Positions 50,701 to 64,000 of a DNA stretch of 64,000 nucleotides are shown one piece after another. The notes under the pieces were generated by a model. That model was not told where the DNA came from and did no database searches. It saw only the letters and a program-made list of their open reading frames with translations. Each line of letters begins with the position of its first letter. Position 1 is the first letter of the stretch. A program made the position numbers and the translations under genes. Origin of the DNA: a virus. Location: IMG/VR virus record IMGVR_UViG_3300036790_000419, positions 84,914-148,913 of that record; one strand, given 5' to 3'.

Positions 50701-53027
50701 TCGGCATCGCGGTCTCCGCCGACAGCGCCGGCGCGGAGACGCACGAGCTGACCTTCCAGAGCTACGTCCAGTGGCTCGCCGAGCAGCTCACCTACCTGGC
50801 CAACAAGCTGGGCGGCGCGTTCGTCAACACGCTCGGCACCACGCCGGTGGCGCCCTCCAAGTACGGCACCGGGCAGGTGCCCACCTACTTCACCCCGGCC
50901 GCCACGCTGTCCGGGCTCGCCGACGTGGCCTCCACGGCGGGCTCGGCCCAGTCGACCTCGCCGCTGGTCTACAACCCGGCCACCGGCCAGTACCAGCACG
51001 CGGGCACCACCGACCCGGTGACCGGGCAGGTAATCCCGGTCACCGTGCAGACGCCGAGCGGGTCTGCCACGCTGTCGGACACCTCCGTGCTGGTGAACAC
51101 GGGCAACGGGTCGACGCTCATCGGCCTGCAGGGCGACGGCACGGTGACCACGGTGGACGGCGGCGGCACCGCGCCGGCGGTCCCCGACGCCCCGGCCGTG
51201 GCGGGCATCGTGCAGGGCCTGGTGGTGGCCTGGGACGGGCTGCTGGGCGGAGCGGCCCCGCTGTCCAACTTCTTCCACGTGACCGCCTACGTCGGCACTA
51301 CCAGCTCGTTCACCCCGAGCGGGTCCAACCAGGCGGGCACGCTGGCCGCGGCCGGGGCGCTGACCGTCGGGAACCTGACCGCCGGGGCTACCTACTACGT
51401 CAAGCTGGCGGCGGTCAGCACTTCCGGCGCGGCCTCGGCGGCCACCTCCGCCGTCTCGGCGGTGGCCGCGGCGGTGCCCACCTCGCTGCTGACCGGGCAG
51501 CTCCCGGCCAGCCTCATCGGCAACAGCGCCGGCAACGCGCTCAACCCGAACCCGTTCTTCAACGGCGGGGACCTGACCGGGTGGTTCGTCACCAACGGCA
51601 CGGTGTCGGCGACCGCGCCGCCGTCCGGTGCCCCGGGGAACGCCCAGTTCGCCGCCCGGGTCGTCTCCACCTCGGCGAACTGCCTGCTGGCCGGCTCGAC
51701 CGCGCCGTTCCCGGTCACGGCCGGGCAGCCGTACGCGATGACAGCCTGGGCCTACAACCCGGGCGGCTCGGCCGTGAACGTGGCGATCGGCTTCAACTGG
51801 GCGTCCGGCACCGCGACGGTGAGCGTCTCGCCCGGCACCTGGGTACCGCTGACCACCGTGCAGACCTGCCCGCCCGGGGTGACCAGCGCCTACCAGGTCA
51901 TCGGGCCGACAGCCTCCGGGGTAACCGTCTACGTGCTCGGGGCGGTCGCCGCCGGGCAGGTGCCCGGCCAGCTGCTGGTGGCCAACTCGGTGGCCGCCGC
52001 GCAGATCGCGGCGAACACCATCACGGCAGCCCAGCTCGCCGCCAATACCATTACCGCCGGGCAGATCGCGGCGAACACCATTACCGCCGGGCAGATCGCC
52101 GCCAGTACCATCACGGCAGCCCAGATCGCCGCGGCGACCATCACCGCCACCCAGATCCTCGCCGGGACCATCACCGCCACCCAGATCCAGGCGGGTACCA
52201 TCACCGTCGCGAAGCTGGCTGCCGGCATCATCATCGCCGGGGCGGTCAACGGCACGACCATCACCGGCGCGCAGATCGTGGCCGACGGGTCGTCCGGCGA
52301 GATCCTCATCTACAGCGGCACCCCGGCCAGCGGCAACCTGGTCGGCAGCTGGTCAGCCAATGCCGGCAGCGACGGCTTCAGCAACGGGTACGACGCCGGC
52401 CTGTGGATCTACGACAGCGGCGGCAACTCGATCGGCCTGGTGCCCGGCGGGTCCGGCGCGGCCAGCCAGCTGGCACTGAGCACCGGCAGCGGGACCCCGA
52501 TGCCGCCGGGCGGCTGCGCGGCACTGTACGGCGCGGGCTCCGGCGCGGTGCAGGCGGTCGACGGCACCGACGGCCAGGCGTACGGCACGCAGCGCCGGTC
52601 GCTGGTGACCGGCAGCACGCAGCTCATCAGCTCCGGCACGCCGGCCTACTGGATAACCTCCCCGGTATCCGGCGGCAGCGGCAGCGGGCGCAGCTACCGG
52701 GTGCACGGCCAGGCGATCGTCAAGGCACTCGGCAGTACCGGGGTCATGAGCTTCTACTTCAACGGCCCGGCCGGCGCTGGCGGCAACGTCATCTTTACCT
52801 TCTACAGCGGAGCTGTACTCAACACGACCGGCCCGCAGAACATCGGTGTCGCTAACCAGCCGGCGTCGTTCAACCCCATGGTCAACGGCCAGTTCTACAC
52901 GGTCAGCTTTGACGGGGTAATCACCATCCCGGCCGGCGTCAGCGGCGCGATGGGCATCCAGGCAGCTACCACGGGCAGCAACTTCGACATCGCCGCCAAC
53001 TCGTTCATGGAGGTCATGCCAGTTTAG
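47703..53027 (+). CDS. large tail-tip/host-specificity protein (1774 aa)
   Basis: Repeat stalks, central tail-tip-like region, FN3-like and CBM-like (NPNPFFNGGDLTGW) segments. Confidence 0.8.
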   Translation: MSFSAIGSPISPTVTSKTFTIVPGAAGDFILFSVVCTSTVADWATALTSAAGQVTWTALGSHFAGSAGINDVTVAVFLGKVVTAASHVVTVTTNAGSPSLRVAGQEFSNTAGFSVVTLDASGTIDVASSGKFPAVTPLQGAGDLYWSFVYDNGTGVVGSTSGYTYHVDGNGNIQCYNLSCANATQQPNIGDTTDGTTGIAVMLYEASTSTPVSVADTAAASDKTAVSATFPLGDTAAAADKLAVAVAVPLTDTAAAAESLASGSPVALSDTAAAADSLQVSVTVLLADTAAAADASANITPTPADAAAAADKLTVGGALGLSDTAAAADRLTVSAAVPLHDTAAAADARTVPSVTVALGDTAAARDDLGAVGPGTGPTGFGSALPSAVLSAYSPPGYPGGPSGAGSIAPSALGNGWEVEVRDGGDYATLLAVIPGSMLLNWQFARMLNDIGSGTVVLSQDDPWWAEVTLPGGLPSETLLDDECLWQVWKDGVCRMEFLGETITEQLADTSEQRQVTVTGPGTVTTLKWAMVAPQGFPDIVLKLDGLLDAFDEVDGAGDPVLDTNIWTTASPASDVYITPIAVIYNYPTGAGYALSTLYPSGSLTLSATPGATYLGASPYDATDTLISAEISPVGVSSSSTDATDAASYGTGLDGSELTQFYIQSNYDDRDYAMIGLSATAFYAQLGSGGQVQTKVLPAYDSQSHGNWMITEQAGSGGGAGTFYFWTSPDGQQWTQQWTTVHSWDATNVTFFVTAAYSAAGSQAVQLSNLNSNVTTPSYQGSIYLGEPMMGVWFDQFTRAQERGTIPFVTTTASPAADSYGRAWGDVENVQAVNGTDLYSFLQGATALVDADYVMDPGFQLRIGIPVAGQVTLGVDRSGYIIFRDGYDVQARQRVRARDQIATLIGGENSDGHEISAESPSFIAEWGQREAWFQTSAQVDPVSMAYATASSLAENETEVVSWTFNLLPNVPGKTVFDDFDVGDWVGLERPDFSAVDIVRVVGIAVSADSAGAETHELTFQSYVQWLAEQLTYLANKLGGAFVNTLGTTPVAPSKYGTGQVPTYFTPAATLSGLADVASTAGSAQSTSPLVYNPATGQYQHAGTTDPVTGQVIPVTVQTPSGSATLSDTSVLVNTGNGSTLIGLQGDGTVTTVDGGGTAPAVPDAPAVAGIVQGLVVAWDGLLGGAAPLSNFFHVTAYVGTTSSFTPSGSNQAGTLAAAGALTVGNLTAGATYYVKLAAVSTSGAASAATSAVSAVAAAVPTSLLTGQLPASLIGNSAGNALNPNPFFNGGDLTGWFVTNGTVSATAPPSGAPGNAQFAARVVSTSANCLLAGSTAPFPVTAGQPYAMTAWAYNPGGSAVNVAIGFNWASGTATVSVSPGTWVPLTTVQTCPPGVTSAYQVIGPTASGVTVYVLGAVAAGQVPGQLLVANSVAAAQIAANTITAAQLAANTITAGQIAANTITAGQIAASTITAAQIAAATITATQILAGTITATQIQAGTITVAKLAAGIIIAGAVNGTTITGAQIVADGSSGEILIYSGTPASGNLVGSWSANAGSDGFSNGYDAGLWIYDSGGNSIGLVPGGSGAASQLALSTGSGTPMPPGGCAALYGAGSGAVQAVDGTDGQAYGTQRRSLVTGSTQLISSGTPAYWITSPVSGGSGSGRSYRVHGQAIVKALGSTGVMSFYFNGPAGAGGNVIFTFYSGAVLNTTGPQNIGVANQPASFNPMVNGQFYTVSFDGVITIPAGVSGAMGIQAATTGSNFDIAANSFMEVMPV
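48348..48800 (+). repeat. nine ~17-aa DTAAAAD coding repeats
   Basis: Visible in the translation. Confidence 0.8.
51985..52275 (+). repeat. 10-aa ITAxQIAANT coding repeats
   Basis: Visible in the translation. Confidence 0.8.
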
Positions 53028-53064
53028 GCACCACGCCCGTACGTGCCTGACCGATCAACCGGCC

Positions 53065-53394
53065 ATGTCCGTAGGAGCGCAGGCGAGCAAGGCAGTCCTT
53101 GACCAGAACCTCACCCAGCTGGCCCTGCAACTGCGCAGCGCCATGCAGCAGATCCAGAACGAGTGGACGTTCGTCAACAACGGCGCGGCCGGCTCGCCCG
53201 TCGAGGTGCTGACCGCGCTCGGCTACGACAACGCCAACAGCGACGCGCCGGGCGGCCAGTCGGACGCCAGCTACGCCAGCTACCTGCTGAACAACCTCAA
53301 CACGATGGCGGGGCTGTACTTCGGTACCGCGACGCAGGCCAGCCCGTTCGACTTCGCCAACGCCCTCGCGCCGCTGAGCGCCGCGCAGCCCTAG
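53065..53394 (+). CDS. hypothetical protein
   Basis: CCGATCA 7 nt upstream. Confidence 0.7.
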   Translation: MSVGAQASKAVLDQNLTQLALQLRSAMQQIQNEWTFVNNGAAGSPVEVLTALGYDNANSDAPGGQSDASYASYLLNNLNTMAGLYFGTATQASPFDFANALAPLSAAQP

Positions 53395-53397
53395 GCG

Positions 53398-54057
53398 CTA
53401 GGCCAGCGGTACCCCGGGGACCGCCGGCTGCGGCCCGGTCTGCGGCCTCCGGGGGCGCAGTGACGCCGCGCCCTCGCGCTCGGCCTGCTCCCAGGACCGC
53501 ACCTGGGCGGAGATGTTGGCCAGCCCGGCGGTCAGCCCGGCGCGCACCGAGTCCGCCAGCGACTGGTAGTAGGCGAGCTGGCGCTGGGCATCGACCGGCG
53601 CCTGGGCGGCGATGCGCGCGGCCTCCCGGCCGGCCTCGTCGACGGCCTCGCGGAGCATGCGCTCGCGCTGCGCGCGGCCGTCAGCCAGCATGCCCTCCCG
53701 CTGCCGCCGCCCGTTCTCCACCATGCTGCGGGCCTGGCCCTGCGCGTCGGTCATCAGCCGGTCCGCGCCCTCTTGCGCCCGGCGCAAGACGTGCACCGCC
53801 TGCTGCTCCACCGGGGGCGGGAGGTAGCTGCTGCCCGGCGCGGCGGCCAGCTCCCCGGAGAGGCGCCCGACCTCCTGCTCCAGTTCGTCGCGCTCGCTGC
53901 CGAGCGCGTCCAGCTCCGCGGCGACCCGGTTCATGAACCGGGTCACCTGCTCGGCGTTCAGTCCCCGGCTGAAGCCGGCCGAGGGGAAGACGGTCCCCCG
54001 GACCTCCGCGGAGGTCAGCCGCCCGGCCTCGCCGGCCAGCAGGCTTGAGTGCACCAT
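53398..54057 (-). CDS. DivIVA-domain coiled-coil protein
   Basis: LTSAEVRGTVF..SRGLNAEQVTRFMNRVA plus coiled coil. Confidence 0.8.
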   Translation of the reverse strand: MVHSSLLAGEAGRLTSAEVRGTVFPSAGFSRGLNAEQVTRFMNRVAAELDALGSERDELEQEVGRLSGELAAAPGSSYLPPPVEQQAVHVLRRAQEGADRLMTDAQGQARSMVENGRRQREGMLADGRAQRERMLREAVDEAGREAARIAAQAPVDAQRQLAYYQSLADSVRAGLTAGLANISAQVRSWEQAEREGAASLRPRRPQTGPQPAVPGVPLA

Positions 54058-54062
54058 GTCGC

Positions 54063-55190
54063 CTATCCCTCCCACCCGAAGTCCTCAGTGTGGACTTGCT
54101 CTCCGGGCATTCCCAGCGCCGTCAGGCGGCCTTTTGCCGCCCGCACCATCGGCGAGGAGCCGCAGACGTAGGCGTCCCGCTCGCGCCAGTCACCCTGGCC
54201 GGCCGCGACGTCCACGATGCTCCCGTGCCTCCCCGCGTAGCCCGGGGTCTCTCCCGGGTCAGCGGTTACCGCGTGCACGACTGTCAGCCAGTCGTGCTGA
54301 GCCGCCAGTTTCTCCAGCCGGTCAAGCTCGTACAGGTTCTCCGGGGCCCTCGCCCCGAAAAACAGGTTCACGGCCGGGGTCCGGGGCCAGGATGAGATCT
54401 CTTCGAGGATGGCCTGCAGCGGGGCGAGCCCGGTGGAGCCCGCGATGAGCAGGACGTCCCGGCCGGAGGAGGTGTCCAGCTTCAGGTTGCCGACCGGGGG
54501 CCCGAGCCGGAGCCGCGCGCCCGGCCCGGCGTGCAGGGCCAGGGCGGTGGACAGCATGCCGCCGTCCTCGACCTTGACGTGAAAGGTCAGCGCGCCGGAG
54601 TCGTCCGGCGCGTTGGCCGGGGAGTAGAACCGCCATACGCGCGGGGCGCGCTCGGGGAACTGGACCGCCACCGACTGCCCGGGCGCGTAGCTCATGGGCT
54701 GCGACAGCCGGGCGCGGATGACGGCGATGTCCGGGCCGCGCATCTCCCGCTCGGTGACCACCGCCTCCCACCACGGCGGGGAGTCCCCGGCGGCCTCAGC
54801 CCCGGACCGCATCACCTGGGCGATGAGCGCGTAGGCCGCGGCCCAGGTCTCCCGCACCTCCGGTGTCCAGGCTTCGCCGGCGAAGTGCGCCAGGGTGGCC
54901 AGCAGGGCCTGGCCTACCACGTCGTAGTGCTCCGGCTTCACGTCGAACTTGCGGTGGTCGCGGCCGAGCCCGGTCAGGAACCCGCTCAGCCTGTCCAGGT
55001 CGTCCACGTCGGTGACGATCCGCACCAGGGCCGCCAGCAGGCGGTCGCGCTGCGCCGTCATGGCCGGCGGGAACATGTCCGTCACCTCGGTCCCGCCCCG
55101 GTAGAACACCTCCGCGTAGAAGAACGCGGCCAGCTCCTCCGCCTGCGGGGCCACCAGGGCGAAGCTCTCCTTCAGCAGCTTGGTGTCCAG
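54063..55190 (-). CDS. flavohaemoglobin-like protein (globin plus FAD/NAD reductase)
   Basis: LGRDHRKFDVKPEHY globin; WRFYSPAN, IAGSTGLAP, AYVCGS; start uncertain. Confidence 0.88.
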   Translation of the reverse strand: MDTKLLKESFALVAPQAEELAAFFYAEVFYRGGTEVTDMFPPAMTAQRDRLLAALVRIVTDVDDLDRLSGFLTGLGRDHRKFDVKPEHYDVVGQALLATLAHFAGEAWTPEVRETWAAAYALIAQVMRSGAEAAGDSPPWWEAVVTEREMRGPDIAVIRARLSQPMSYAPGQSVAVQFPERAPRVWRFYSPANAPDDSGALTFHVKVEDGGMLSTALALHAGPGARLRLGPPVGNLKLDTSSGRDVLLIAGSTGLAPLQAILEEISSWPRTPAVNLFFGARAPENLYELDRLEKLAAQHDWLTVVHAVTADPGETPGYAGRHGSIVDVAAGQGDWRERDAYVCGSSPMVRAAKGRLTALGMPGEQVHTEDFGWEG

Positions 55191-55329
55191 GGCCGCTTCC
55201 CCCCTTAGTCCGGGTGTGTGATTCACACGCACAAGAGCGGAGCTTAACACCGCAATCCCTACTGGTCAGTTACTTGCCTGGATGCAAGCACATGTGCCCA
55301 GGGCCAGGTCAGGGGACGATTGCCCCGGC

Positions 55330-55959
55330 ATGACCCTGCTCCCTGACCGCGACGGCATCCGCTGGCACCCCCGCTCCGTCATCGAGAAGTACAGCAGCGA
55401 CCAGGTGCGGTGGGCGCGGCGGCGTGACCTCGCCGCGCCGCCGCGGTTGAACGGGGAGACCCTGCGGGGGCTGTTCCCTGAGCCGGAGGACGGGATAGTT
55501 GAAGACCAGGGCAACGGGGTGACCGCGGGCGGCACCGCCAACCTGGCGCTGGTGCTCACCGGCGCGGGCGGCCACCCGCTCGCGCCGGGCCGGGCGGTGT
55601 TCGGGGTGGGCAGCGACGCCACCGGGTTCAGCCGCGAGCACGTGCGCCTGGCGAATGCCGTGGGCGAGGAGCCGGGCCGGTCCTGGTACCGGCCGATGGA
55701 CGCCGGCTACCCGCGTGTCACCCGGACGGGGGCCGTCGAGGGGCAGGCCACGTTCGCTGAGGCCGAGGCCTGCTTCGCCTGGCACGAGTGGTGCTGGGGA
55801 ACCGGGCCGGGCGGGCCCGTGCCGCACCACTCGCTGCGCGGCTGCTACGGCGGCGAGCAGCCGGTGATGATGAACCGGCGAGCGCACCCTGCCGGGTACG
55901 GGGAGAAGCTCGCCGGGGTCGCGTGGGTGTTCCGGACGGAGGTGGCCATCGGAAACTGA
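55330..55959 (+). CDS. paralogue of minor tail protein 46466-47155
   Basis: Shared DQ..WA, N.VT..G, WY, ATF....FAW.E; ACGATTG 7 nt upstream. Confidence 0.7.
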   Translation: MTLLPDRDGIRWHPRSVIEKYSSDQVRWARRRDLAAPPRLNGETLRGLFPEPEDGIVEDQGNGVTAGGTANLALVLTGAGGHPLAPGRAVFGVGSDATGFSREHVRLANAVGEEPGRSWYRPMDAGYPRVTRTGAVEGQATFAEAEACFAWHEWCWGTGPGGPVPHHSLRGCYGGEQPVMMNRRAHPAGYGEKLAGVAWVFRTEVAIGN

Positions 55960-56329
55960 GGTGGCCATGAGGGCAGTGATTGCCCTATCCTTGGGTGAAG
56001 GCCCCCGTGTCAGTGGTGCAACTCCGGTTGTGTGCGCTGGTCTCACCACGGGGGCCTTTGCTATGCTCGCCAACGAGACCAGTGCACAGCACAACCAAAT
56101 GAACGCACCGCTGCCCTCTGCGGATGGGTGAGCCGCTTACTTATTTGATCTTGCGCTGGTGGAGAAGGCTTGGGGCACCTCTCCCCATGCGGACGGCACT
56201 GACCTGATGTCATGCCGGGGCACGGGCCCTCAACTCCTGAATTTCGAACACTTAACTTTTGTTCGAGTCCGGGGGTAGGGGGCGAGCCATGCCCCGGCAT
56301 GGCAATCAGCGCGAGGGCGGCGGGGCGGT

Positions 56330-56797
56330 ATGGGCGGGGCGGTTTACAACGCGTACCTGATGAGCGACGTGTGGCGCAGTAAGCGCCGCTGTCGGTTGGC
56401 GATCGACAGCGGCAGGTGCCAGGGCTGTGGCGTTATAAGCCGGCTTCATGTGCACCATCGCACGTATGAGCGCTTTGGCGGCCGGGAGCTGATGTCAGAC
56501 CTGGTTACGGTCTGTGAGAAGTGCCATGAGGCTATCCACAGGGCACACCGGGGTAAGAGCCGGCAGTCTCTTGACGCAGTAACAACGCGGGTGCTCGCGC
56601 GGCTTCACCGGGAGCGGCCTGGTCAGGTCAAGACCCGGTTGAAAAGAAAAGTCCGGGAGGCTCCTCGGAAGAAACAACACGTTGCGCCGGAGGCCACAGT
56701 GCCCTGGGAACGTGACTCGGACCCCACGTGGACGGCTAGGGCAGCTCACCGCACGGCCCTCACCCCCGCCGACGTACGTCGGCGGAACGGGCTTTGA
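56330..56797 (+). CDS. HNH endonuclease
   Basis: CQGCG..LHVHHRTY..DLVTVCEKCH. Confidence 0.85.
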   Translation: MGGAVYNAYLMSDVWRSKRRCRLAIDSGRCQGCGVISRLHVHHRTYERFGGRELMSDLVTVCEKCHEAIHRAHRGKSRQSLDAVTTRVLARLHRERPGQVKTRLKRKVREAPRKKQHVAPEATVPWERDSDPTWTARAAHRTALTPADVRRRNGL

Positions 56798-56816
56798 GCC
56801 TGGCATCCTTGACCTC

Positions 56817-57059
56817 ATGAAAACCTTGCGGGAGTGCCTGGAGTACAGGGACCGGCTGCTGCGCGCCGGCTACACGGTCGCCGGCTGCGGGGAGGTCCGG
56901 CTGGCCGAGGGCGCGGCGGGGGACCTGGGCGGCTGGTGGGCACGCCTCGGGGACGACGCCGAGACCCTGGCCGCCGTCATCTTCGTCCCGCTCGGCGCCG
57001 GGGCCTGGCAGGTGCTGCTGGCCGGCAGCAGGGTCCCGGCGGCGGTGGAGGCCCCTTGA
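56817..57059 (+). CDS. hypothetical protein
   Basis: GC3-rich ORF. Confidence 0.55.
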   Translation: MKTLRECLEYRDRLLRAGYTVAGCGEVRLAEGAAGDLGGWWARLGDDAETLAAVIFVPLGAGAWQVLLAGSRVPAAVEAP

Positions 57060-57069
57060 GGAGGTTCCG

Positions 57070-57276
57070 ATGCCGGGTTACGTTATAGCGGCTTCGCCGT
57101 CAGCGCCTTTCCCCGGCTGGTACCTGAAGAGCGTCGGGTCAGTGGACGCTTACTGGACGCCGGCACCGGCGGAAGCGATGCGGTTCACGTCTTCTGCCGC
57201 GGCGATGACTTACTGGGACTCTGTGCCGCCTGGCCTTGGCGCCTTTTTCCCGGTATCGGCGGAGGAAGCCCCTTGA
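57070..57276 (+). CDS. hypothetical protein
   Basis: SD GAGGAGG. Confidence 0.6.
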   Translation: MPGYVIAASPSAPFPGWYLKSVGSVDAYWTPAPAEAMRFTSSAAAMTYWDSVPPGLGAFFPVSAEEAP

Positions 57277-57464
57277 GGAGCAAGACCGTGGCCGTCACCT
57301 GGATGGACGACCGGACCGAGACGTACAAGACCCGCGGCTCCGTTGACGTGAACGAGGCTGAGCTGGTCATCACCAGCCCGGAGTTCGAGCGGGACCTGCC
57401 GGGCGGCAGCCGCACGCGCGTCCCGCTGGCCAACGTCCGCTTCTACGACATCACCCTGGACTGA
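57273..57464 (+). CDS. hypothetical protein
   Basis: Coupled; SD GGAGG. Confidence 0.6.
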   Translation: MRSKTVAVTWMDDRTETYKTRGSVDVNEAELVITSPEFERDLPGGSRTRVPLANVRFYDITLD

Positions 57465-57477
57465 CGTAGTAACAGTC

Positions 57478-57963
57478 ATGGGACGAGCAGCTTCAGGGAA
57501 GAGAACCCGCCGCGAGGTCGCCGAGGCGGCCGGCCTGCGGGCCTGGTACAACAGGCAGCTGGCCCGGCCGGAGGTGGCGGACGCTGAGTTGCAGGCCAGG
57601 CTGAAGGCTGACAACCCCGGCCAGCGCACCCGGCTGCGCCGGGCCGGCTGGACCCGGGCGGCGGAGGGGAACGACGGCATCGGCTGGTGGGCGCAGCCGC
57701 AGCGCGGCCAGAAGATGATCCACTCGGTCAGCCGCGAGGCCGACGGGCACCTGTGGGGGCACTTCTCCATGTCGCTGTACGGCGGCGAGCTGCCCGGCTG
57801 GTACGAGCTGCGCGACATGCAGTGGCTGCTGTACCCGGACCTGACGGGCATGCAGCTGGCGGTGCCGCAGGCCGCGCACGTCTCCATCGCCGAGGTGGCG
57901 CACATGTGGACGTGCCTGACCGCGGACCTGCTGCCGGCCTTCGGCCGGCTGGGCAGCATCTGA
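57478..57963 (+). CDS. hypothetical protein
   Basis: GC3-rich; HFSMS..LPGWYEL..HMW. Confidence 0.65.
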   Translation: MGRAASGKRTRREVAEAAGLRAWYNRQLARPEVADAELQARLKADNPGQRTRLRRAGWTRAAEGNDGIGWWAQPQRGQKMIHSVSREADGHLWGHFSMSLYGGELPGWYELRDMQWLLYPDLTGMQLAVPQAAHVSIAEVAHMWTCLTADLLPAFGRLGSI

Positions 57964-58125
57964 TGAGCGGGCACTGGCGGCTGCTCCCGTGACCCGGACG
58001 TGGTGGATCGGCCCCCGCGAGGTCGGGCGCTCGCTGGCCCGCTGGGGCCACTGCGTCGCCACGCTCTGGAACCCAGGGCACCTGGACGGGCGGTACCGGC
58101 TGTGACCCCGGTCCTGTGAAAATAA

Positions 58126-58162
58126 GAAGAGCCCGCACCAGCTCAGGGGGTGCGGGCTCTTC
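58126..58162. terminator. hairpin terminator between convergent genes
   Basis: GAAGAGCCCGCACC/GGTGCGGGCTCTTC. Confidence 0.7.
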
Positions 58163-58182
58163 GCGGCCTTGACGCTTACACC

Positions 58183-58929
58183 TTACGGCTCGATGTCCGC
58201 CTCGACGACCCGGTTCGGCGGGAGCACGAACTCGGTGTATTCCAGCAGGTCGTCCCCGTGCCGCCAGCCGCTGACCCCGGCGAGGACGTACGCGCCGCTC
58301 TCCAGCCCCAGGGCGGGCAGCTCGCGCCCGTCGTCCTTCGCCGCCCGGCATTCGAACGCGATGCCCCCGGCCAGCTCAGCCGGGTCGGTGCCGGACCGGG
58401 CCGCGATCAGGTGCCCGGCCCCGCGCGGGTCGGGCAGCGGGGCCGGCAGGGCCAGCTCGGGCACGCTGGGGAAGTACCGCGGGTGAACCCAGGTGACGCT
58501 CAGCCGCGACGGGCTGCCGTCGCGCAGCCGGGTGACCTCCTCGCGGCGGATGACCGGGTGGTCCGGCGGCCCGTCGGCTAGCCCGAACATCGGCACGATG
58601 TACCCGGGCGCGGTCACGGTGCCGGCGAAAGTGACGGTGACCACCTCCGAGGCCGGGCTGTCCCGCAGCCGCATGCGCTGCTGGGGGGACAGCGCGGCAC
58701 GGGGGGCGTCCACGTAGGTGCCGGAGGCGTCGGTCCGCACCAGGCGCTCGGCCAGGTGCAGGTGGGCGACCGCCTGCTGGGCCACGCCCTGGCTGACCCC
58801 CCACTCGTCGCGGATGGCGCGGACGGAGGGCAGCGGGTCGCCCTGCCGCAGCTCACCGCGCAAGATCATTTCCTTGTAGTGGGTGACGATCTGCTTCCAG
58901 AGCGGCTCGCTCCGCTGGGCCTGGGGCAC
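58183..58929 (-). CDS. GntR (HutC/UTRA) repressor, KorSA/TraR-like
   Basis: PLWKQI..GELRQGDPLPSVRAIRDEWGVS HTH plus UTRA-like domain; divergent from the tra operon. Confidence 0.85.
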   Translation of the reverse strand: MPQAQRSEPLWKQIVTHYKEMILRGELRQGDPLPSVRAIRDEWGVSQGVAQQAVAHLHLAERLVRTDASGTYVDAPRAALSPQQRMRLRDSPASEVVTVTFAGTVTAPGYIVPMFGLADGPPDHPVIRREEVTRLRDGSPSRLSVTWVHPRYFPSVPELALPAPLPDPRGAGHLIAARSGTDPAELAGGIAFECRAAKDDGRELPALGLESGAYVLAGVSGWRHGDDLLEYTEFVLPPNRVVEADIEP

Positions 58930-59005
58930 TGCGGCCTCCTGTTATTCGGTCAGTTCGCGTACGCCCCGATTTTACTTCGGCAAAGACCGGGGCCAGTGGA
59001 ACATC

Positions 59006-59034
59006 TTGCGAACGTGTACTGTTCACACTACAGT
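59006..59034 (+). promoter_or_regulatory. promoter of the xis-spd-traB operon
   Basis: TTGCGA-17nt-TACAGT, overlapped by ACTGT-N7-ACAGT dyad. Confidence 0.6.
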
Positions 59035-59083
59035 GAGCGGAACGAGGTGATTCCGCCGGAGATCTCAGAGAGGCGGAGGGGAG

Positions 59084-59347
59084 ATGCCGAAGAGCGCGCA
59101 AGAGGCAGGAGAGCAGCTGGTCCGGTGGACGGACGCCGCTCTCGAACTCGGCGTGTCCGTCGACACCCTGGAAGCGTGGTACGGCGACGGGATCGTGCCG
59201 CTGCGCCGTACCCCCGGCCTCCGCCTCACCTGGCGGTCCTGGCTGGACGCGGTGCTCGCGCCGAGCGAGCCGGGGACCGACGGGGACATCGCCAAGGTAA
59301 CCGCCGCCTGGTGGGCGGCGCGGGCAACGGCGGGGGTGGCGGCGTGA
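59084..59347 (+). CDS. Xis/MerR-like HTH protein
   Basis: DAALELGVSVDTLEAWYGDGIVP..RTPG. Confidence 0.7.
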   Translation: MPKSAQEAGEQLVRWTDAALELGVSVDTLEAWYGDGIVPLRRTPGLRLTWRSWLDAVLAPSEPGTDGDIAKVTAAWWAARATAGVAA

Positions 59348-60204
59348 TGTCCTCGTTCGGCGGTGTGATTAAGGCGGCGCGCGAGCGGGCCGACTCGCTG
59401 ACGGTCGGCACCGCCATGGGCGTGGTGGCGTTCTGCTCCGGCTTCATCAGCTTCACCCACATCAGCGCGCTGACCCAGTACCTGGGCGGGTCCTGGAAGG
59501 TCGCGCACCTGATGCCGTTCTGCGTGGACGGCCAGATCGTCATCGGCTCCGCGTACTTCATGTACGGGAAGAACTGGTGGTCCAAGTCGGCCGGGCTGCT
59601 GTTCGGCGTCATTCCCGGCATCGCCGAGTCGCTGATCGCCAACTGGGAGTCGGGCATCGCGCACGGGCTGTTCTCCGCGGGCTGGGACACCGTTCCCGCG
59701 CAGTCGTTCGCCTGCTCCATGATCCTGTTCGAGCGCTGGCTGCACCAGCGCCGGGCGGAAGGGCCGGCCTCGCGTCCGGCTCCCGTGACCGTCTCGCAGG
59801 CACTGGAGCCCGCCGCACCCGTGGCTCCTGAGGCCGGCCCGGCGCTGGTGCACCTGCACGCCGCGCCGGCGGGAGCGCCGTGGGGCCTGGCGGTCCCCGC
59901 GGCTGCTCCCGTGCCTGAGCCGGTGCCCGCGACCGCCGCGGCCTCGCTGCCGTTCCCGCTGCAGGTGGCCGGCCCGTCCATGCCGCTGGACAGCCGCCCG
60001 GCCCGGCCCCGCCGCCAGACGGCCACCACGTCCGTGAGCATCGACCGCAGGCCGCTGCCGGCGGAGGGCTCGGACGAGCTGCGCGCGCTGGTCAACAGCC
60101 TGAGCCGCAATGACCTGTACCGGCAGTACGAGGTCAGCAAGCACGGCGCGGACAAGCTCCGCGAGCAGTACCTGAACGAGGAAGTGGCCACCGATGTCGC
60201 CTGA
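59347..60204 (+). CDS. DUF2637 (Spd-type) membrane protein
   Basis: Four TM segments; SFTHISAL..AHLMPFCVDG; Pro/Ala linker; C-terminal HTH-like. Confidence 0.7.
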   Translation: MSSFGGVIKAARERADSLTVGTAMGVVAFCSGFISFTHISALTQYLGGSWKVAHLMPFCVDGQIVIGSAYFMYGKNWWSKSAGLLFGVIPGIAESLIANWESGIAHGLFSAGWDTVPAQSFACSMILFERWLHQRRAEGPASRPAPVTVSQALEPAAPVAPEAGPALVHLHAAPAGAPWGLAVPAAAPVPEPVPATAAASLPFPLQVAGPSMPLDSRPARPRRQTATTSVSIDRRPLPAEGSDELRALVNSLSRNDLYRQYEVSKHGADKLREQYLNEEVATDVA

Positions 60205-62263
60205 CAAGACCCCGAGCCTGCACCAGCAGGCACACCACGCGCGCAGCGAGCTGCTGGTGCGCGCCGTCCAGCTCGGCGTGCCGTGGGCCGTGTTCGCGCT
60301 GCTCACCATCTGCGGCAACGTGCTGCACCTGGTGTCCGCGCACGACCGCGCACTTGGCGAGTGGCTGCCGCTGACCGCGGGGCTGGCCATGGCGGCGGGC
60401 AGCGCTACCGTCGCCATTGACTGGCACCTGCGGCGCAACCGCACGTCGCGGGTCGGCCGGGTCATCGGGCCGGTCACCACCGGGGCCGCCACGGTGATGC
60501 TCACCGCGTTCCTGCTGGCCGGCTACAGCGTGCCGCTGGTGCTGCTGTGGCTGTTCGGCGGCATCGCCGGCTGCGCGGTGTGGGACCTGTGGTTCGCGCA
60601 CGCCCCGCGGCACGACCTGGGCACCGCGTTCGCGCTGTCCGCCGAGCGCGCGGGCCTCGGCCAGGTGCGGCTGTCCCCGGCCCGCGGGGGCACCGCCCCG
60701 GCCCTGCCGCAGCGCCCGGCCGCCCCCGGCCGCCCGGCCCCGCGCCAGCCGCTGTCGGCCCGGCTGCGGCCCTCGCGCGGGGCCCCGGCCCCCGGCCCGC
60801 AGCGCGGCACCATCTACTTCCCGCCCGGCGACGTGCCCGACGGGGAGCGCGCCGCCCGGGTGGAGAGCGCCAACCAGCTGCCGCCCGGCGCGCTGGTGCT
60901 GTCCCCCAACCCGGACAACAGCGCCGCCGCCGACTACGCCTACTCCGACCCGCGCACGCTGGACGCCCCGCAGCCGTGGCCCGGCCCGTCGGCGCCCGGC
61001 GCGGACATGAGCGTGCCGTTCCGCTACGGCCTCTACCAGACCGGCGAGGTGGTGCTGGTGCCCCGGCTGCCGCTGTTCCACACCCGCGGGATGGGCCAGA
61101 CCGGCAGCGCCAAGACCACCGGGTGGAGCTGGAACCAGCTGGGCGAGGGGGTGACCCGGCAGGACTACGCGGCGATGGTGCTGGACCCCTCCAAGGGCGA
61201 GCAGTTCTACGGGGCCTGGCGTCCCGCGCTGCACCGGTTCGAGACCGACGAGGAGAAGGGGCTGTACCTGCTGCGCGGCCTGCACCGGGCCCGCATCGCC
61301 CGGTGCAACTACCTGGGCCGCAAGCGGCTCATCAACTGGGAGCCGGGCTGCGGGCTGAGCTTCCTGGACGTGTTCATGGCCGAGGCTCCCGACATCATCC
61401 GGCTGCTGGAGACCGCCAGGACCCGGACGGCGAGCGCGGTCATGGCCCTGGAGACCTGGAACAGCGACGTCAAGAACGGCCGGTCCGCGGGCATCGCCTA
61501 CAACCTGGACCTGCAGCTCACCCTGGCCACCGAGATGCCGAGCGTCGCCCAGGGGCAGATGAGCCACCTGTGCCTGGGCGTGGAGGACCTGAAGCAGGCG
61601 GCGTTCGGCCTCTCCGCGCGGCAGAAGGCGGCGGGCTGCCGCCCGGAGCTGTGGGGCAAGCGGTACCCGGGCAAGGCGTACTGGGACGCGCCGACGGTGC
61701 CCGAGGAGTACGGCACCACCGCGATGCGGTTCTGGTACTGGGAGGGCGAGGCCCGCCAGGCGTTCGCCTACGCCGAGCAGTACGAGGCGGCCGGCCGGCC
61801 GCTCGACGACGTGACCGGCGAGGCGCTGGAGGCCGAGCCGGCCGCCCCGGCCAGTCACGCGCTGCCCGGCCCCGGCGGCACCCTGGCCGGCGCCCCGCCC
61901 CGCCCCGGCTGGCCGGCGGCCCTGCCGGGCAACGTCCGGCCGCTGTTCCGCGCGGAGCCGTCCGTGCCCGGCCGCGACGACGCGGCGGCCGAGGCCGAGG
62001 AGAAGGTCCGCGCGCACCTGGCCGGCCTGCTGGCCGCCGGCACCGCCGTGGTCGCGTTCGACGACCTGACCAAGCAGGGCCTGTGGGGCGGGGCCGGCGA
62101 CGGCCCCGGCGGCAAGACGGCCCGGTCCCGGTCGTGGGGCTACACCGCCATGGGGTCCATGTGCCACCTGGGGTACGCCGAGGCCCTGACGGGCGGGGGC
62201 CGCAAGCGGTGGAGGATCCTGCCGGAGGCCGCGCGCGGCGCGGCGGAGGGCGAGGAGGGCTAG
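60194..62263 (+). CDS. traB: TraB-like FtsK/SpoIIIE conjugative DNA translocase
   Basis: N-terminal TMs; GQTGSAKT Walker A; VLDPSKG; GRSAGI; C-terminal wHTH RSRSWGY. Confidence 0.8.
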   Translation: MSPDKTPSLHQQAHHARSELLVRAVQLGVPWAVFALLTICGNVLHLVSAHDRALGEWLPLTAGLAMAAGSATVAIDWHLRRNRTSRVGRVIGPVTTGAATVMLTAFLLAGYSVPLVLLWLFGGIAGCAVWDLWFAHAPRHDLGTAFALSAERAGLGQVRLSPARGGTAPALPQRPAAPGRPAPRQPLSARLRPSRGAPAPGPQRGTIYFPPGDVPDGERAARVESANQLPPGALVLSPNPDNSAAADYAYSDPRTLDAPQPWPGPSAPGADMSVPFRYGLYQTGEVVLVPRLPLFHTRGMGQTGSAKTTGWSWNQLGEGVTRQDYAAMVLDPSKGEQFYGAWRPALHRFETDEEKGLYLLRGLHRARIARCNYLGRKRLINWEPGCGLSFLDVFMAEAPDIIRLLETARTRTASAVMALETWNSDVKNGRSAGIAYNLDLQLTLATEMPSVAQGQMSHLCLGVEDLKQAAFGLSARQKAAGCRPELWGKRYPGKAYWDAPTVPEEYGTTAMRFWYWEGEARQAFAYAEQYEAAGRPLDDVTGEALEAEPAAPASHALPGPGGTLAGAPPRPGWPAALPGNVRPLFRAEPSVPGRDDAAAEAEEKVRAHLAGLLAAGTAVVAFDDLTKQGLWGGAGDGPGGKTARSRSWGYTAMGSMCHLGYAEALTGGGRKRWRILPEAARGAAEGEEG

Positions 62264-62481
62264 TGGGGCAGCGGGTGGCGGCAGTGGCCAGGATCGCGCG
62301 CGAGGGGGACGGCCGCGTGACCCTCGCGAGGGTCCAGGCGGACCCGGGCGTGCAGCGGCACGTCATGTCGCCCTCGCGCGTAACAGACATCATGGGCGAG
62401 CTGGAGGGGCACGGGCTGGTGCGGATGGTGTGCCGCCACCCGGTCCCCACGTGGCGGGTGACGGGGGAAGCATGCGGGTAA
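62263..62481 (+). CDS. stand-alone winged-helix protein
   Basis: SPSRVTDIMGELEGHGLV..WRV; coupled to traB. Confidence 0.6.
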   Translation: MGQRVAAVARIAREGDGRVTLARVQADPGVQRHVMSPSRVTDIMGELEGHGLVRMVCRHPVPTWRVTGEACG

Positions 62482-62889
62482 CCAGGATCGCCCGCGCCGT
62501 GTGCTCCGGGGACGGCGCGCGCCGTCCCGCAAGCGGGGTAAAGTCCGGTCGCCGCGACCCGGGCCCGCTTCCAGGGCCCGTTCCCGCCCCGCAAGCGGGG
62601 GGAAGTCCGGATACGCCGAAGGCCAAAACTAAGAAATCACCCTCAACACTGACAGTAACCGCCCGGGTACCCCCCCTGGCCGCCGGTGCCCCCGCGGCGG
62701 GCCCGGACAGCCCCGTAGCGGCCCTCAGGGGCCCGGCCAGGCCTCGCGGGCGCGCGAGGGCCCGCCGCGGCCCGCAGGGTGGCTCTCCGCGCCGCAAGCC
62801 CTCCGCCTGGCCGGGCCCTGGACCGGAGGATATCCTGGCCCTGAGCGGGCCCGTGAGCGCCCGCCAGGGACCTGGAGGTCACCGGAGCC

Positions 62890-63066
62890 ATGACGACCCG
62901 CACTCTCCGCGCCTGGGCCGTCCTGGGGGCCTTCGCGGCCGTGACCGCGGCCACTGCGGCGGGCACCAGGCTCGCCGAGGCGGCGGCCGGGATGCTGCTG
63001 GTCGCGCTCGCGCTGCTGCTGGTGAGCCTCGACGGCCTGCGCAAACGCGGCAGGACCCGCCGCTAG
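62890..63066 (+). CDS. 58-aa two-TM protein
   Basis: SD GGAG; two hydrophobic helices and a basic tail. Confidence 0.6.
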   Translation: MTTRTLRAWAVLGAFAAVTAATAAGTRLAEAAAGMLLVALALLLVSLDGLRKRGRTRR

Positions 63067-63380
63067 CCGCGTTTCCTGCGGAAAAACCCCCGGCCGGGCA
63101 TTATTTTCTTTCGGCTGGTCCCGGCTGGAAAAGGAAATCTTCCCGCTGGCTGCCGCGTCAGCCCGGCGGCCCTGCCTGTCAGGGTGATTGCGGACACCGG
63201 CCCGCGCCGCTGACAGAGATTACGCAGGCCAGGGCTCTGCGCCTAAACGGAGGCTTGTGCCTTTCAGGTGCCCTCCGCTCGCCGTTTCGCGGGTCTCCGC
63301 CCGGTAATTCCGGAGACCCGCCGCCGGGCGAAGTTAACTTTCCGCAGGTCAGCGAGATTCACCCTAAACGGAGGTTTGCC

Positions 63381-63863
63381 GTGGCCCTGGGCCGTAAGCC
63401 GGAACCGCGGCGCGAGGTCACCCCGCTGGCCATGTACCGCGCCGAGCGGGTCGAGGCCCGCCCGGAGGTGACCCCGCTGGAGCTGTACGGCGCGGTGGTC
63501 ACCGAGGACCTGTCCGGCATGTGGGTGTACGCGTTCGCCGACCACCCGGGCTCCCGGTGGTCGGACGGCAGGGTCTGGTACGCCGGGCAGACCGACCACC
63601 TGTGGTCACGGTGGCGCGACCACTACTACAGGTTCGGCGAGCGGTTCGCCGCGGCGGTCAAGTGGCGCATCCGGGTGGCCAACGAGGCCGAGGCCGACCT
63701 CATCGAGCTGGTGCTGATCCACTTCTACCAGCCCGAGTGCAACGACAAGGGGCGGCGCGCGGACCTGGAGGCGAAGGTCCGGGCCTGGGGCCGGGGCACC
63801 CGGCAGTACAAGCGCGGCGAGGGCTGGCCGGAGCGCCTTGACTCAGGTAAAGCAAGCAACTAG
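63381..63863 (+). CDS. GIY-YIG-like nuclease
   Basis: WVYAF..WYAGQT..SRWRDH..E..LI..PECN; SD GGAGG. Confidence 0.7.
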   Translation: MALGRKPEPRREVTPLAMYRAERVEARPEVTPLELYGAVVTEDLSGMWVYAFADHPGSRWSDGRVWYAGQTDHLWSRWRDHYYRFGERFAAAVKWRIRVANEAEADLIELVLIHFYQPECNDKGRRADLEAKVRAWGRGTRQYKRGEGWPERLDSGKASN

Positions 63864-63866
63864 ACT
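63838..63866 (+). promoter_or_regulatory. housekeeping-sigma promoter with two operator-like dyads
   Basis: TTGACT-17nt-TAGACT. Confidence 0.75.
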
Positions 63867-63896
63867 CGGGTTAAGCAACCAACCGAGGAGGACCCG

Positions 63897-64000
63897 ATGG
63901 CGGACAGGCTGAGGCCGAGTGCCGCGCGGCTGACCCCGGCCGCGCTGACTCTGCTGGCCAGGCAGAGCGCGTCCACCGCGCGCGCCGCGCGGTCGCAGGG
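63897..64000 (+). CDS. partial ORF running off the window
   Basis: SD GAGGAGG then ATG. Confidence 0.55.
   Translation, partial: MADRLRPSAARLTPAALTLLARQSASTARAARSQ

Follow-up and report, generated by a model that had tools for sequence, protein, structure and literature searches.

A plasmid-type TraB cassette in a lineage of large soil actinophages and its possible role in spread through mycelium

Phages are usually supposed to need virions in order to spread among bacteria. Plasmids of the Streptomyces type move double-stranded DNA (dsDNA) through hyphal walls with a single FtsK-like pump and a few helpers. What would a phage do with such a pump? The question is raised by IMG/VR virus record IMGVR_UViG_3300036790_000419, a single contig of 148,913 bp. 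We analysed its final 64,000 bases (the window, to which plain coordinates refer), which carry, at 58183–63066, a gene for a GntR-family repressor and a divergent operon that includes a gene for a TraB-like translocase. A first-pass annotation had related this module to the Kor/TraR–TraB modules of actinomycete plasmids and had taken the genome for a phage–plasmid hybrid. The kinship is borne out by the comparisons below, which also point to a module that has long resided in a phage lineage; the hybrid fares less well.

Kinship with plasmid transfer regions

The genes that the first-pass annotation had described are all present: a GntR gene on the minus strand and, on the plus strand, genes for an 87-residue helix-turn-helix (HTH) protein, a DUF2637 membrane protein, the TraB-like FtsK ATPase (hereafter TraB), an extra winged helix-turn-helix (wHTH) protein and a 58-residue protein with two hydrophobic helices (Table 1). 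TraB has no Pfam match, but it matches the NCBIfam plasmid_TraB family, NF041214, and also phrog_24831. Its residues 63–546, which cover the membrane and motor domains, align with TraB of plasmid pSN22 at 24% identity (E 6e-23). The GntR protein matches phrog_10724 across its full length and is 28% identical to pSN22 TraR (E 2e-10). The layout is also that of pSN22, as well as of pSVH1 and pIJ101 (TraB/Tra with TraR/KorA), where a divergent GntR gene, one or more small proteins, a TraB of ~670–690 residues and small membrane proteins occur together. On the strength of these matches and the common layout, we read the cassette as a true homologue of the actinomycete-plasmid TraR–TraA–TraB transfer region.

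The start and stop codons of the operon overlap along its length (TGATG between the 87-residue and DUF2637 genes, 11 nt between the DUF2637 gene and traB, and the traB stop with the start of the 72-residue wHTH gene), and we therefore read the operon as translationally coupled. Translational coupling has been described for plasmid spd operons (PMC4447253).

The phage cassette differs from that of pSN22 in several respects. It lies in a 149-kb tailed-phage genome without int (rep is reported absent as well, though no dedicated Rep search was made), it has a 285-residue DUF2637 protein in place of the 155-residue TraA of pSN22 (which has no Pfam match), and it adds HTH_17-like and wHTH genes. 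The Walker B motif of TraB is of the Glu-Glu type seen in pSN22 rather than Asp-Glu, with the first of the two acids replaced by Ala in the phage protein. The 8-bp clt repeats of plasmid TraB systems were not found with the phage cassette.

The nearest plasmid-borne TraBs are those of Thermobispora bispora ZC4 and Nonomuraea plasmids, with 34–40% identity over the motor domain (best in PLSDB, 40%). The 145-kb ZC4 plasmid (NZ_CP039125.1, 39–64 kb) has a similar arrangement of a GntR gene, three small genes and a 667-residue TraB-like gene, and this arrangement adjoins thyX, a Dam methylase gene and ParA. We considered whether the ZC4 plasmid is itself a related phage-plasmid and rejected the idea, since neither the portal nor the major capsid protein of the phage has a homologue on it. 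Carriage of ParA is a further difference from the phage.

Phage-borne tra functions and FtsK-like genes in several Streptomyces phages are already known. As described in later papers, pZL12 (phiZL12) is a 90-kb temperate Streptomyces plasmid-prophage with ParA and ParB (PMC3583192, PMC4487206, PMC7157519), whose transfer depends on a major tra gene together with two genes next to it (PMC3583192). The present phage differs from pZL12 as described there in lacking par and int genes and in having a lytic-type replisome. FtsK/SpoIIIE-like genes occur in Streptomyces phages such as Jaresh and AndoPrime (PMC13587820). These resemble the present case in that phages of mycelial hosts bear FtsK-superfamily ATPases; they differ in being annotated by the FtsK_SpoIIIE domain, in that none is similar to this TraB by tblastn, and in that no TraR/DUF2637 cassette has been described with them. 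Spd homologues also occur on actinophages, and a role for them in spread across the mycelium has already been suggested (PMC4447253). New in the present case is the place of the TraB cassette, a ~150-kb phage lineage that brings its own tRNA set and replisome and lacks plasmid and lysogeny genes. New too are a TraB clade that is specific to phages and bears P-loop inteins, the shuffling of alleles inside a fixed cassette, and a conserved, genome-unique non-coding block that is a candidate loading site.

Table 1 Features of the cassette and its surroundings (window coordinates)
Feature	Position	Strand	Evidence or remark
GntR-family repressor, TraR/KorA-like	58183..58929	-	divergent from transfer operon; Pfam GntR E 3e-10
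Candidate sigma70-type promoter, TTGCGA-17-TACAGT	59006..59034	+	read from sequence; putative function
Small DNA-binding protein, 87 residues, probably excisionase/MerR-like HTH_17	59084..59347	+	language-model atlas score 0.95 to HTH_17 clusters (lead only)
DUF2637 membrane protein, 285 residues, TraA/Spd-like position	59347..60204	+	Pfam 24.7 bits against a cut-off of 22.8
TraB-like dsDNA translocase, 689 residues	60194..62263	+	NCBIfam plasmid_TraB (NF041214) E 3.2e-48
Stand-alone winged-helix protein, 72 residues	62263..62481	+	atlas structure match to MarR/ArsR/HTH_24 domains, template-modelling (TM) score 0.68-0.79
Two-copy 27-nt element, mini-hairpin then AAGTCCGG; candidate genome-specific cis site	62522..62610	.	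copies 62 nt apart
Conserved non-coding block, about 270 nt; candidate clt, operator or promoter	62610..62889	.	upstream of the 58-residue gene; putative function
Spd-like small membrane protein, 58 residues	62890..63066	+	two hydrophobic helices (hydropathy)
Conserved protein downstream of module, 160 residues	63381..63863	+	frame signal from GC content at third codon positions (GC3)

A resident and mosaic part of the phage genome

Does the module belong to the phage, or to something that lies next to it in the assembly? A scan of IMG/VR with the single TraB sequence gave nothing, and the relatives were found with an alignment as query; a protein search returned about 60 metagenomic TraB homologues with 33–86% identity, many of them on contigs of 100–153 kb. 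Gene order is identical in ten related loci, namely seven relatives of ~77–153 kb and three short metagenome contigs. The shared order begins with a giant tail protein, a variable minus-strand pair, p225, DUF7694 and the GntR gene (minus strand), and goes on with a protein of 87–114 residues, DUF2637, TraB, small open reading frames (ORFs), a protein of 58–60 residues, a protein of ~160 residues and a long run of small early genes. In all six of the IMG/VR relatives with TraB that were tested, the portal is 77–93% identical to that of this phage. The relative G002 (151,377 bp) has direct terminal repeats and is 100% complete, and its module is internal, at about 109–111 kb. These carriers apparently form a sub-lineage of ~150-kb soil actinophages that are lytic in look.

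The locus itself was recovered a second time on a Logan contig of the likely source run, a separate assembly though not an independent sample, which covers 50000–64000 with one difference and runs ~47 kb past the window end. A second soil study contains identical short pieces. Most joints in the contigs placed along the locus have sides of ~20 nt that stem from unrelated GC-rich DNA, and these were disregarded. The separate contig and the complete relative G002 both place the module on a phage genome. In every relative, phage genes lie on both sides of the module, and no Phage_integrase or Resolvase match was found genome-wide, so that the adjacent actinomycete integrative and conjugative element (AICE) or host DNA that the annotation had named as the refuting case was not what we saw.

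The TraB proteins give a consistent picture. A quick IQ-TREE maximum-likelihood search, with the careful search unfinished, gave an unrooted tree (midpoint rooting for drawing only) in which one branch, with a Shimodaira–Hasegawa-like approximate likelihood ratio test (SH-aLRT) value of 100, separates 22 phage or metagenome TraBs from nine cellular or plasmid ones. No close copy of the phage TraB was found in 185,579 species-representative genomes, where the nearest cellular TraBs are 26–40% identical (43% over one 165-residue fragment). The hosts of these cellular TraBs are mostly mycelial (Actinomadura, Streptosporangium, Spirillospora, Herbidospora, Nonomuraea, Actinokineospora and Streptomyces), together with several metagenome-assembled genomes. 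Because the gene order is shared among independent assemblies, a contig bridges the tail genes and the module, and the TraB clade is specific to phages, we take the module to be an old phage-resident lineage and not a recent AICE insertion or a chimera.

That the module and the virion genes form one replicon had been argued earlier from promoter dyads thought to be shared with the tRNA operon. The replicon stands, on the synteny, the bridging contig and the TraB clade; the dyads do not. The best stretches common to 62481–63400 and the tRNA region are 11–16 nt long with E >= 0.018, and they lie in DNA of 70% GC, several of them inside tRNA genes.

The genome around the module looks like that of a large phage of lytic type. 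The record is 98% complete (CheckV), nearly all of its genes lie on the plus strand, and its base composition is uniform. Its first and last 178 bases are 99.4% identical, which fits terminal redundancy or circular assembly. The window holds virion genes (terminase-like, Mu-type portal, head protease, major capsid and tail-fibre proteins) and 33 tRNA genes, and the left arm of the genome holds genes for a DNA polymerase, sliding clamp, clamp loader, DnaB-type helicase and UvsX-like recombinase. A full replisome of this composition is typical of large lytic phages. A six-frame search of the whole record, in which control genomes responded, found no tyrosine integrase, resolvase-type recombinase, ParA (AAA_31) or ParB_N. 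The earlier statement that neither int nor rep is visible is thus upheld, genome-wide, for integrase and resolvase, and its rep part is not covered: no dedicated Rep family, including the AICE type, was searched for, and the par, integrase and resolvase negatives do not extend to Rep. With its own replisome and without int, par or resolvase genes, the carrier genome looks like that of a large lytic-type phage. Among cultured phages, the portal is closest to that of Microbacterium phage Magritte (133 kb, 50% identity).

Residence in the lineage does not mean a uniform history. G012 (143.5 kb) and G014 (141.7 kb), both 100% complete and with portals 75–78% identical to that of this phage, have no TraB homologue, in searches where the positive controls responded; and downstream of its p225-like gene, which is shared, G012 has no protein similar to the module or early genes of this phage. 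Among INPHARED phages, Magritte included, no TraB match was found by tblastn at E <= 1e-5 (the presence of pZL12 in INPHARED was not checked), and megablast of 57–64 kb gave no match there either. Among the carriers, the parts of the cassette differ in their relationships. Compared with L004, the TraB motor reaches only 41% identity, as against 72% for the GntR protein and 81% for the 87-residue protein; compared with L012 and L002, the TraB motor is 60–62% identical and the 87-residue protein only 42–45%; and compared with G002, TraB is 42% identical and the portal 93%. TraB occurs as two allele types, one with Ala-Glu and GxxGSAKT and the other with Glu-Glu and GxxG(S/T)GKT. From these patterns, the TraB allele types have evidently been exchanged among related phages.

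Several neighbouring genes of this lineage deserve mention in their own right. The variable minus-strand slot before p225 is occupied by a DivIVA-like gene, a flavohaemoglobin gene, or genes for a nitric oxide (NO) synthase and a flavohaemoglobin. In the window, a DivIVA-like gene and a flavohaemoglobin gene (globin, FAD and NAD domains) lie at 53398–55250, both on the minus strand, with the tail genes on one side and the module on the other, and in the same slot L002:2264-4797 holds NO synthase and flavohaemoglobin genes, a phage-borne pair for making and detoxifying NO. An HNH endonuclease gene at 56330–56797 is absent from this place in all ten compared relatives and is probably a recent homing-endonuclease insertion. 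The portal gene at G003:C1:148266-149875 is read in three pieces and has an internal TAA, perhaps through an insertion, a frameshift or faulty assembly. Farther off, in the left arm of the genome, L007:4083-6875 (genome 44083–46875) encodes an SNF2-family helicase with a LAGLIDADG domain at residues of about 300–355, probably another intein, and L008:15000-17963 (genome 75000–77963), in the replication arm, encodes a 987-residue radical-SAM protein (Radical_SAM_N2 and Radical_SAM).

The TraB motor, its partners and candidate cis elements

We modelled TraB with AlphaFold (AF2) on an alignment of 26 homologues, with a predicted local distance difference test (pLDDT) score of 78. The model has an N-terminal helical membrane region, an FtsK-type motor (about residues 218–545), a disordered linker and a C-terminal domain. 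At the N-terminus it has long helices over residues 9–140, where hydropathy shows two to three strongly hydrophobic stretches. A sequence-profile search of the PDB with TraB gave only weak FtsK and HerA matches, and a fold search was needed: the top PDB match of the model in Foldseek is the FtsK motor (E 2e-10, target TM 0.61), followed by the TcpA coupling protein and EccC/EssC. The last 105 residues, modelled separately (pLDDT 76), have the order H-S-H-H-S-S, as in a winged helix, and only wHTH proteins are among their top PDB matches, at weak E-values of 0.03–0.2. The C-terminal wHTH proposed earlier is thus present as a fold in the model, with matches of that strength.

Is this motor likely to be active? 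The doubt arises from the Walker B motif, which reads FMAEA as the first-pass annotation had noted, with Ala at the residue before the catalytic Glu. At that position pSN22 TraB (FEEA) and the cellular homologues have Glu, and one phage sub-clade has Ala. We read Glu-Glu, and not Asp-Glu, as the norm of the family, and the Ala as a shared, stable feature of a sub-clade and not a private lesion. With this norm, and with Ala shared across the sub-clade, the worry is softened: the Ala is there, but functional pSN22 TraB has Glu-Glu and the catalytic Glu is invariant. Four residues, Walker A Lys307, Walker B Glu397, Arg430 and Gln441, do not vary across the 26-sequence alignment, and the stretch with Arg430 and Gln441 aligns with the RAAGIHL...ATQRP region of FtsK. 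Three TraB homologues (P0018, P0024 and P0045) carry a LAGLIDADG intein of 363–369 residues directly after the Walker A lysine, a site that corresponds to the position after residue 307 of the window TraB; the intein begins with Ala and ends in His-Asn before Thr. Inteins typically occupy the most constrained sites of active enzymes. The pairwise ratio of nonsynonymous to synonymous change (dN/dS) of TraB is 0.53–0.66 against three close relatives, i.e., below 1, and is probably inflated because a GC3 of about 99% depresses synonymous change. The invariant K307, E397, R430 and Q441, the P-loop inteins and a dN/dS below 1 suggest that TraB activity has likely been kept.

The other proteins of the cassette are conserved to different degrees. 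The GntR protein is 44–78% identical in every relative that covers its gene. The 87-residue protein, without a Pfam match, is 81–92% identical in the closer relatives, a conservation that exceeds that of TraB. An alignment of five orthologues, together with hydropathy, divides the DUF2637 protein into a strongly conserved N-terminal membrane domain, a Pro-rich linker that varies, and a C-terminal helical domain that is small and conserved; tblastn found no BLAST-level relative of it in plasmids or INPHARED phages. The 72-residue winged-helix protein is 50–66% identical in L083, L084, L014 and L015. It was considered as a duplicate of the TraB C-terminus, and this was rejected as the two have no detectable similarity. 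The 58-residue protein is found at the same position in L082, L084, L004, L002 and L014 with 46–75% identity. The 160-residue protein always follows the module in the relatives (40–76% identical in seven), and none of Pfam, NCBIfam, PHROGs and PADLOC has a match for it. The search for defence systems with PADLOC gave nothing beyond one marginal HTH hit.

Two non-coding regions may serve the cassette in cis. Upstream of the operon, an ACTGT-N7-ACAGT dyad lies over the −10 element of the predicted promoter, its second arm, ACAGT, being present here only with one spacer mismatch; this dyad is a candidate TraR operator. The divergent region between the GntR gene and the operon is near-identical in L082, L084, L004 and L002, while their TraBs are only 42–74% identical. 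By analogy with plasmid traR–traB pairs, it is plausibly a repressor-controlled promoter; such Kil-Kor pairs are known from plasmids (PMC4447253).

Downstream of traB lies the conserved block of about 270 nt (Table 1). Across an alignment of seven phages its mean column identity is 66%, with GCCGAAGGCCAAAC-like and CTGACAGTAACC-like boxes that do not vary, and it contains a 12-bp palindrome, (G/C)AGGATATCCTG, at 62826–62837 around GGATATCC; the palindrome and the boxes are unique in the genome. Read as RNA, the block was rejected: it has no Rfam match and an unfavourable RNAalifold covariation term. For these reasons we take it as an element that acts at the DNA level, more likely a protein-binding DNA region. 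Ahead of it, the 27-nt hairpin repeat stands at 62522–62548 and 62584–62610, and the 148.9-kb genome has no further copy of it. A count of the 11-mers of the post-module region against the genome was uninformative.

Possible roles of the cassette

We propose that a phage-domesticated TraR–TraA–TraB cassette carries phage dsDNA that has not been packaged through septal cross-walls or hyphal contacts and so infects more of the mycelium, and we give this proposal an even chance of being right. The GntR protein would hold the operon off, as plasmid TraR does with toxic traB. Once expressed in infection, TraB would assemble into a ring anchored in the membrane, at septal cross-walls or where hyphae touch, and its winged helix would recognise the phage genome at a cis site, probably the conserved non-coding region directly downstream. 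It would then pump unpackaged double-stranded phage DNA into adjacent hyphal compartments or hyphae. The Spd-like part of channel or helper may fall to the small membrane protein and the DUF2637 protein, and the two small HTH proteins may assist by binding DNA. Each adsorption event would then lead to more infected mycelium, without virions or receptors.

A number of observations weigh against this proposal. The match of TraB to NF041214 scores 164.7 bits against an equivalog cut-off of 800, which makes TraB a homologue and not an equivalog, and with Ala at the first acidic Walker B position its ATPase activity is only putative. DUF2637 membership is marginal, and no SpdB2 or other characterised Spd homologue was shown. 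No clt array of 8-bp direct repeats, of the plasmid-TraB kind, was found downstream of the module; the 27-nt hairpin repeat and the CCTAAACGGAGG boxes, sought in the relatives, are not conserved as such, with small ORFs occupying the slot; and the conserved block could simply be a promoter or operator. The module is accessory, as G012, G014 and Magritte do without it. In TraB, divergence far outpaces that of the virion genes and alleles are shuffled among relatives, a pattern that a conflict-type function would fit as well. The host is taken to be mycelial only because the nearest cellular TraBs come from mycelial actinomycetes. Finally, among public runs, none is listed with RNA that holds the sequence.

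The fast divergence is the natural starting point for the alternatives. A function in conflict (superinfection exclusion, the blocking or exploiting of resident conjugative plasmids and AICEs, or host-DNA mobilisation) would suit a TraB that is 42% identical to that of G002 when the portal is 93% identical, ATPase alleles that are swapped relative to their neighbours, and a module that is accessory in the lineage. We consider it unlikely, as no PADLOC defence model rises above noise and the complete plasmid transfer architecture is kept, repressor included. An equally unlikely reading makes the genome a true phage-plasmid, a plasmid prophage that spreads by virions and by TraB conjugation, much like pZL12, which would be its precedent. 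This is close to the hybrid first proposed, and the plasmid-type transfer unit and the 178-bp end overlap, compatible with a circle, suit it. Such overlaps, however, arise also from terminally redundant or permuted lytic phages, and the 98%-complete record has no ParA, ParB or tyrosine or serine recombinase and has instead a full lytic-type replisome and 33 tRNAs. The comparison with the 185,579 genomes, free of any close copy, gave matches of 26–40% (43% over a fragment), and PLSDB gave 40% for TraB and nothing for DUF2637. We hold it just as improbable that the pump moves phage DNA across sporulation or vegetative septa, much as FtsK/SpoIIIE-type proteins pump chromosomes, and so traps the genome in spores or other protected compartments as a carrier state. 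Both its nearest homologues and the whole cassette arrangement belong with transfer systems and not with chromosome-segregation FtsK or SffA, and the carrier state is unsupported, even with an FtsK-type motor that has a predicted sequence-reading winged helix and with development-related genes, such as that for the DivIVA-like protein, adjoining the module.

Two further explanations would deny the cassette a present role in this phage. It could be a decaying, non-functional relic of an old AICE or plasmid capture, as the Ala in place of the first acidic Walker B residue and the fairly high dN/dS (0.5–0.66) might suggest. We regard this as very improbable: every module-bearing relative examined has intact, translationally coupled frames, the catalytic Lys, Glu, Arg and Gln are invariant, the Ala is common to a whole sub-clade, inteins target the P-loop, and a GC3 of about 99% depresses dS and so raises dN/dS. 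An assembly chimera, a neighbouring independent AICE or host DNA, which would come to mind for any record derived from a metagenome, is scarcely credible here given the same junctions in independent assemblies from different samples, the contig that bridges tail genes, module and 47 kb beyond, the uniform composition and the absence of an integrase.

The proposed movement of unpackaged genomes through mycelium has a bolder form, possible in our view though more doubtful: a lineage of large, strictly lytic actinophages would have turned a conjugation pump into a cell-to-cell movement system, functionally like the movement proteins of plant viruses, in which TraB loads at a cis site of the phage and takes naked genomes across septa and from hypha to hypha. 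If so, one adsorption event could take a whole mycelium and bypass receptor-based resistance.

What sets these phages apart is a conserved, intein-targeted, phage-specific cassette in large, lytic-looking genomes, which extends the matter beyond the one known plasmid-phage. It suggests that phages of filamentous actinomycetes may make regular use of virion-free spread within the mycelium, which, if true, would bear on phage predation, plaque formation and resistance in antibiotic-producing soil bacteria.

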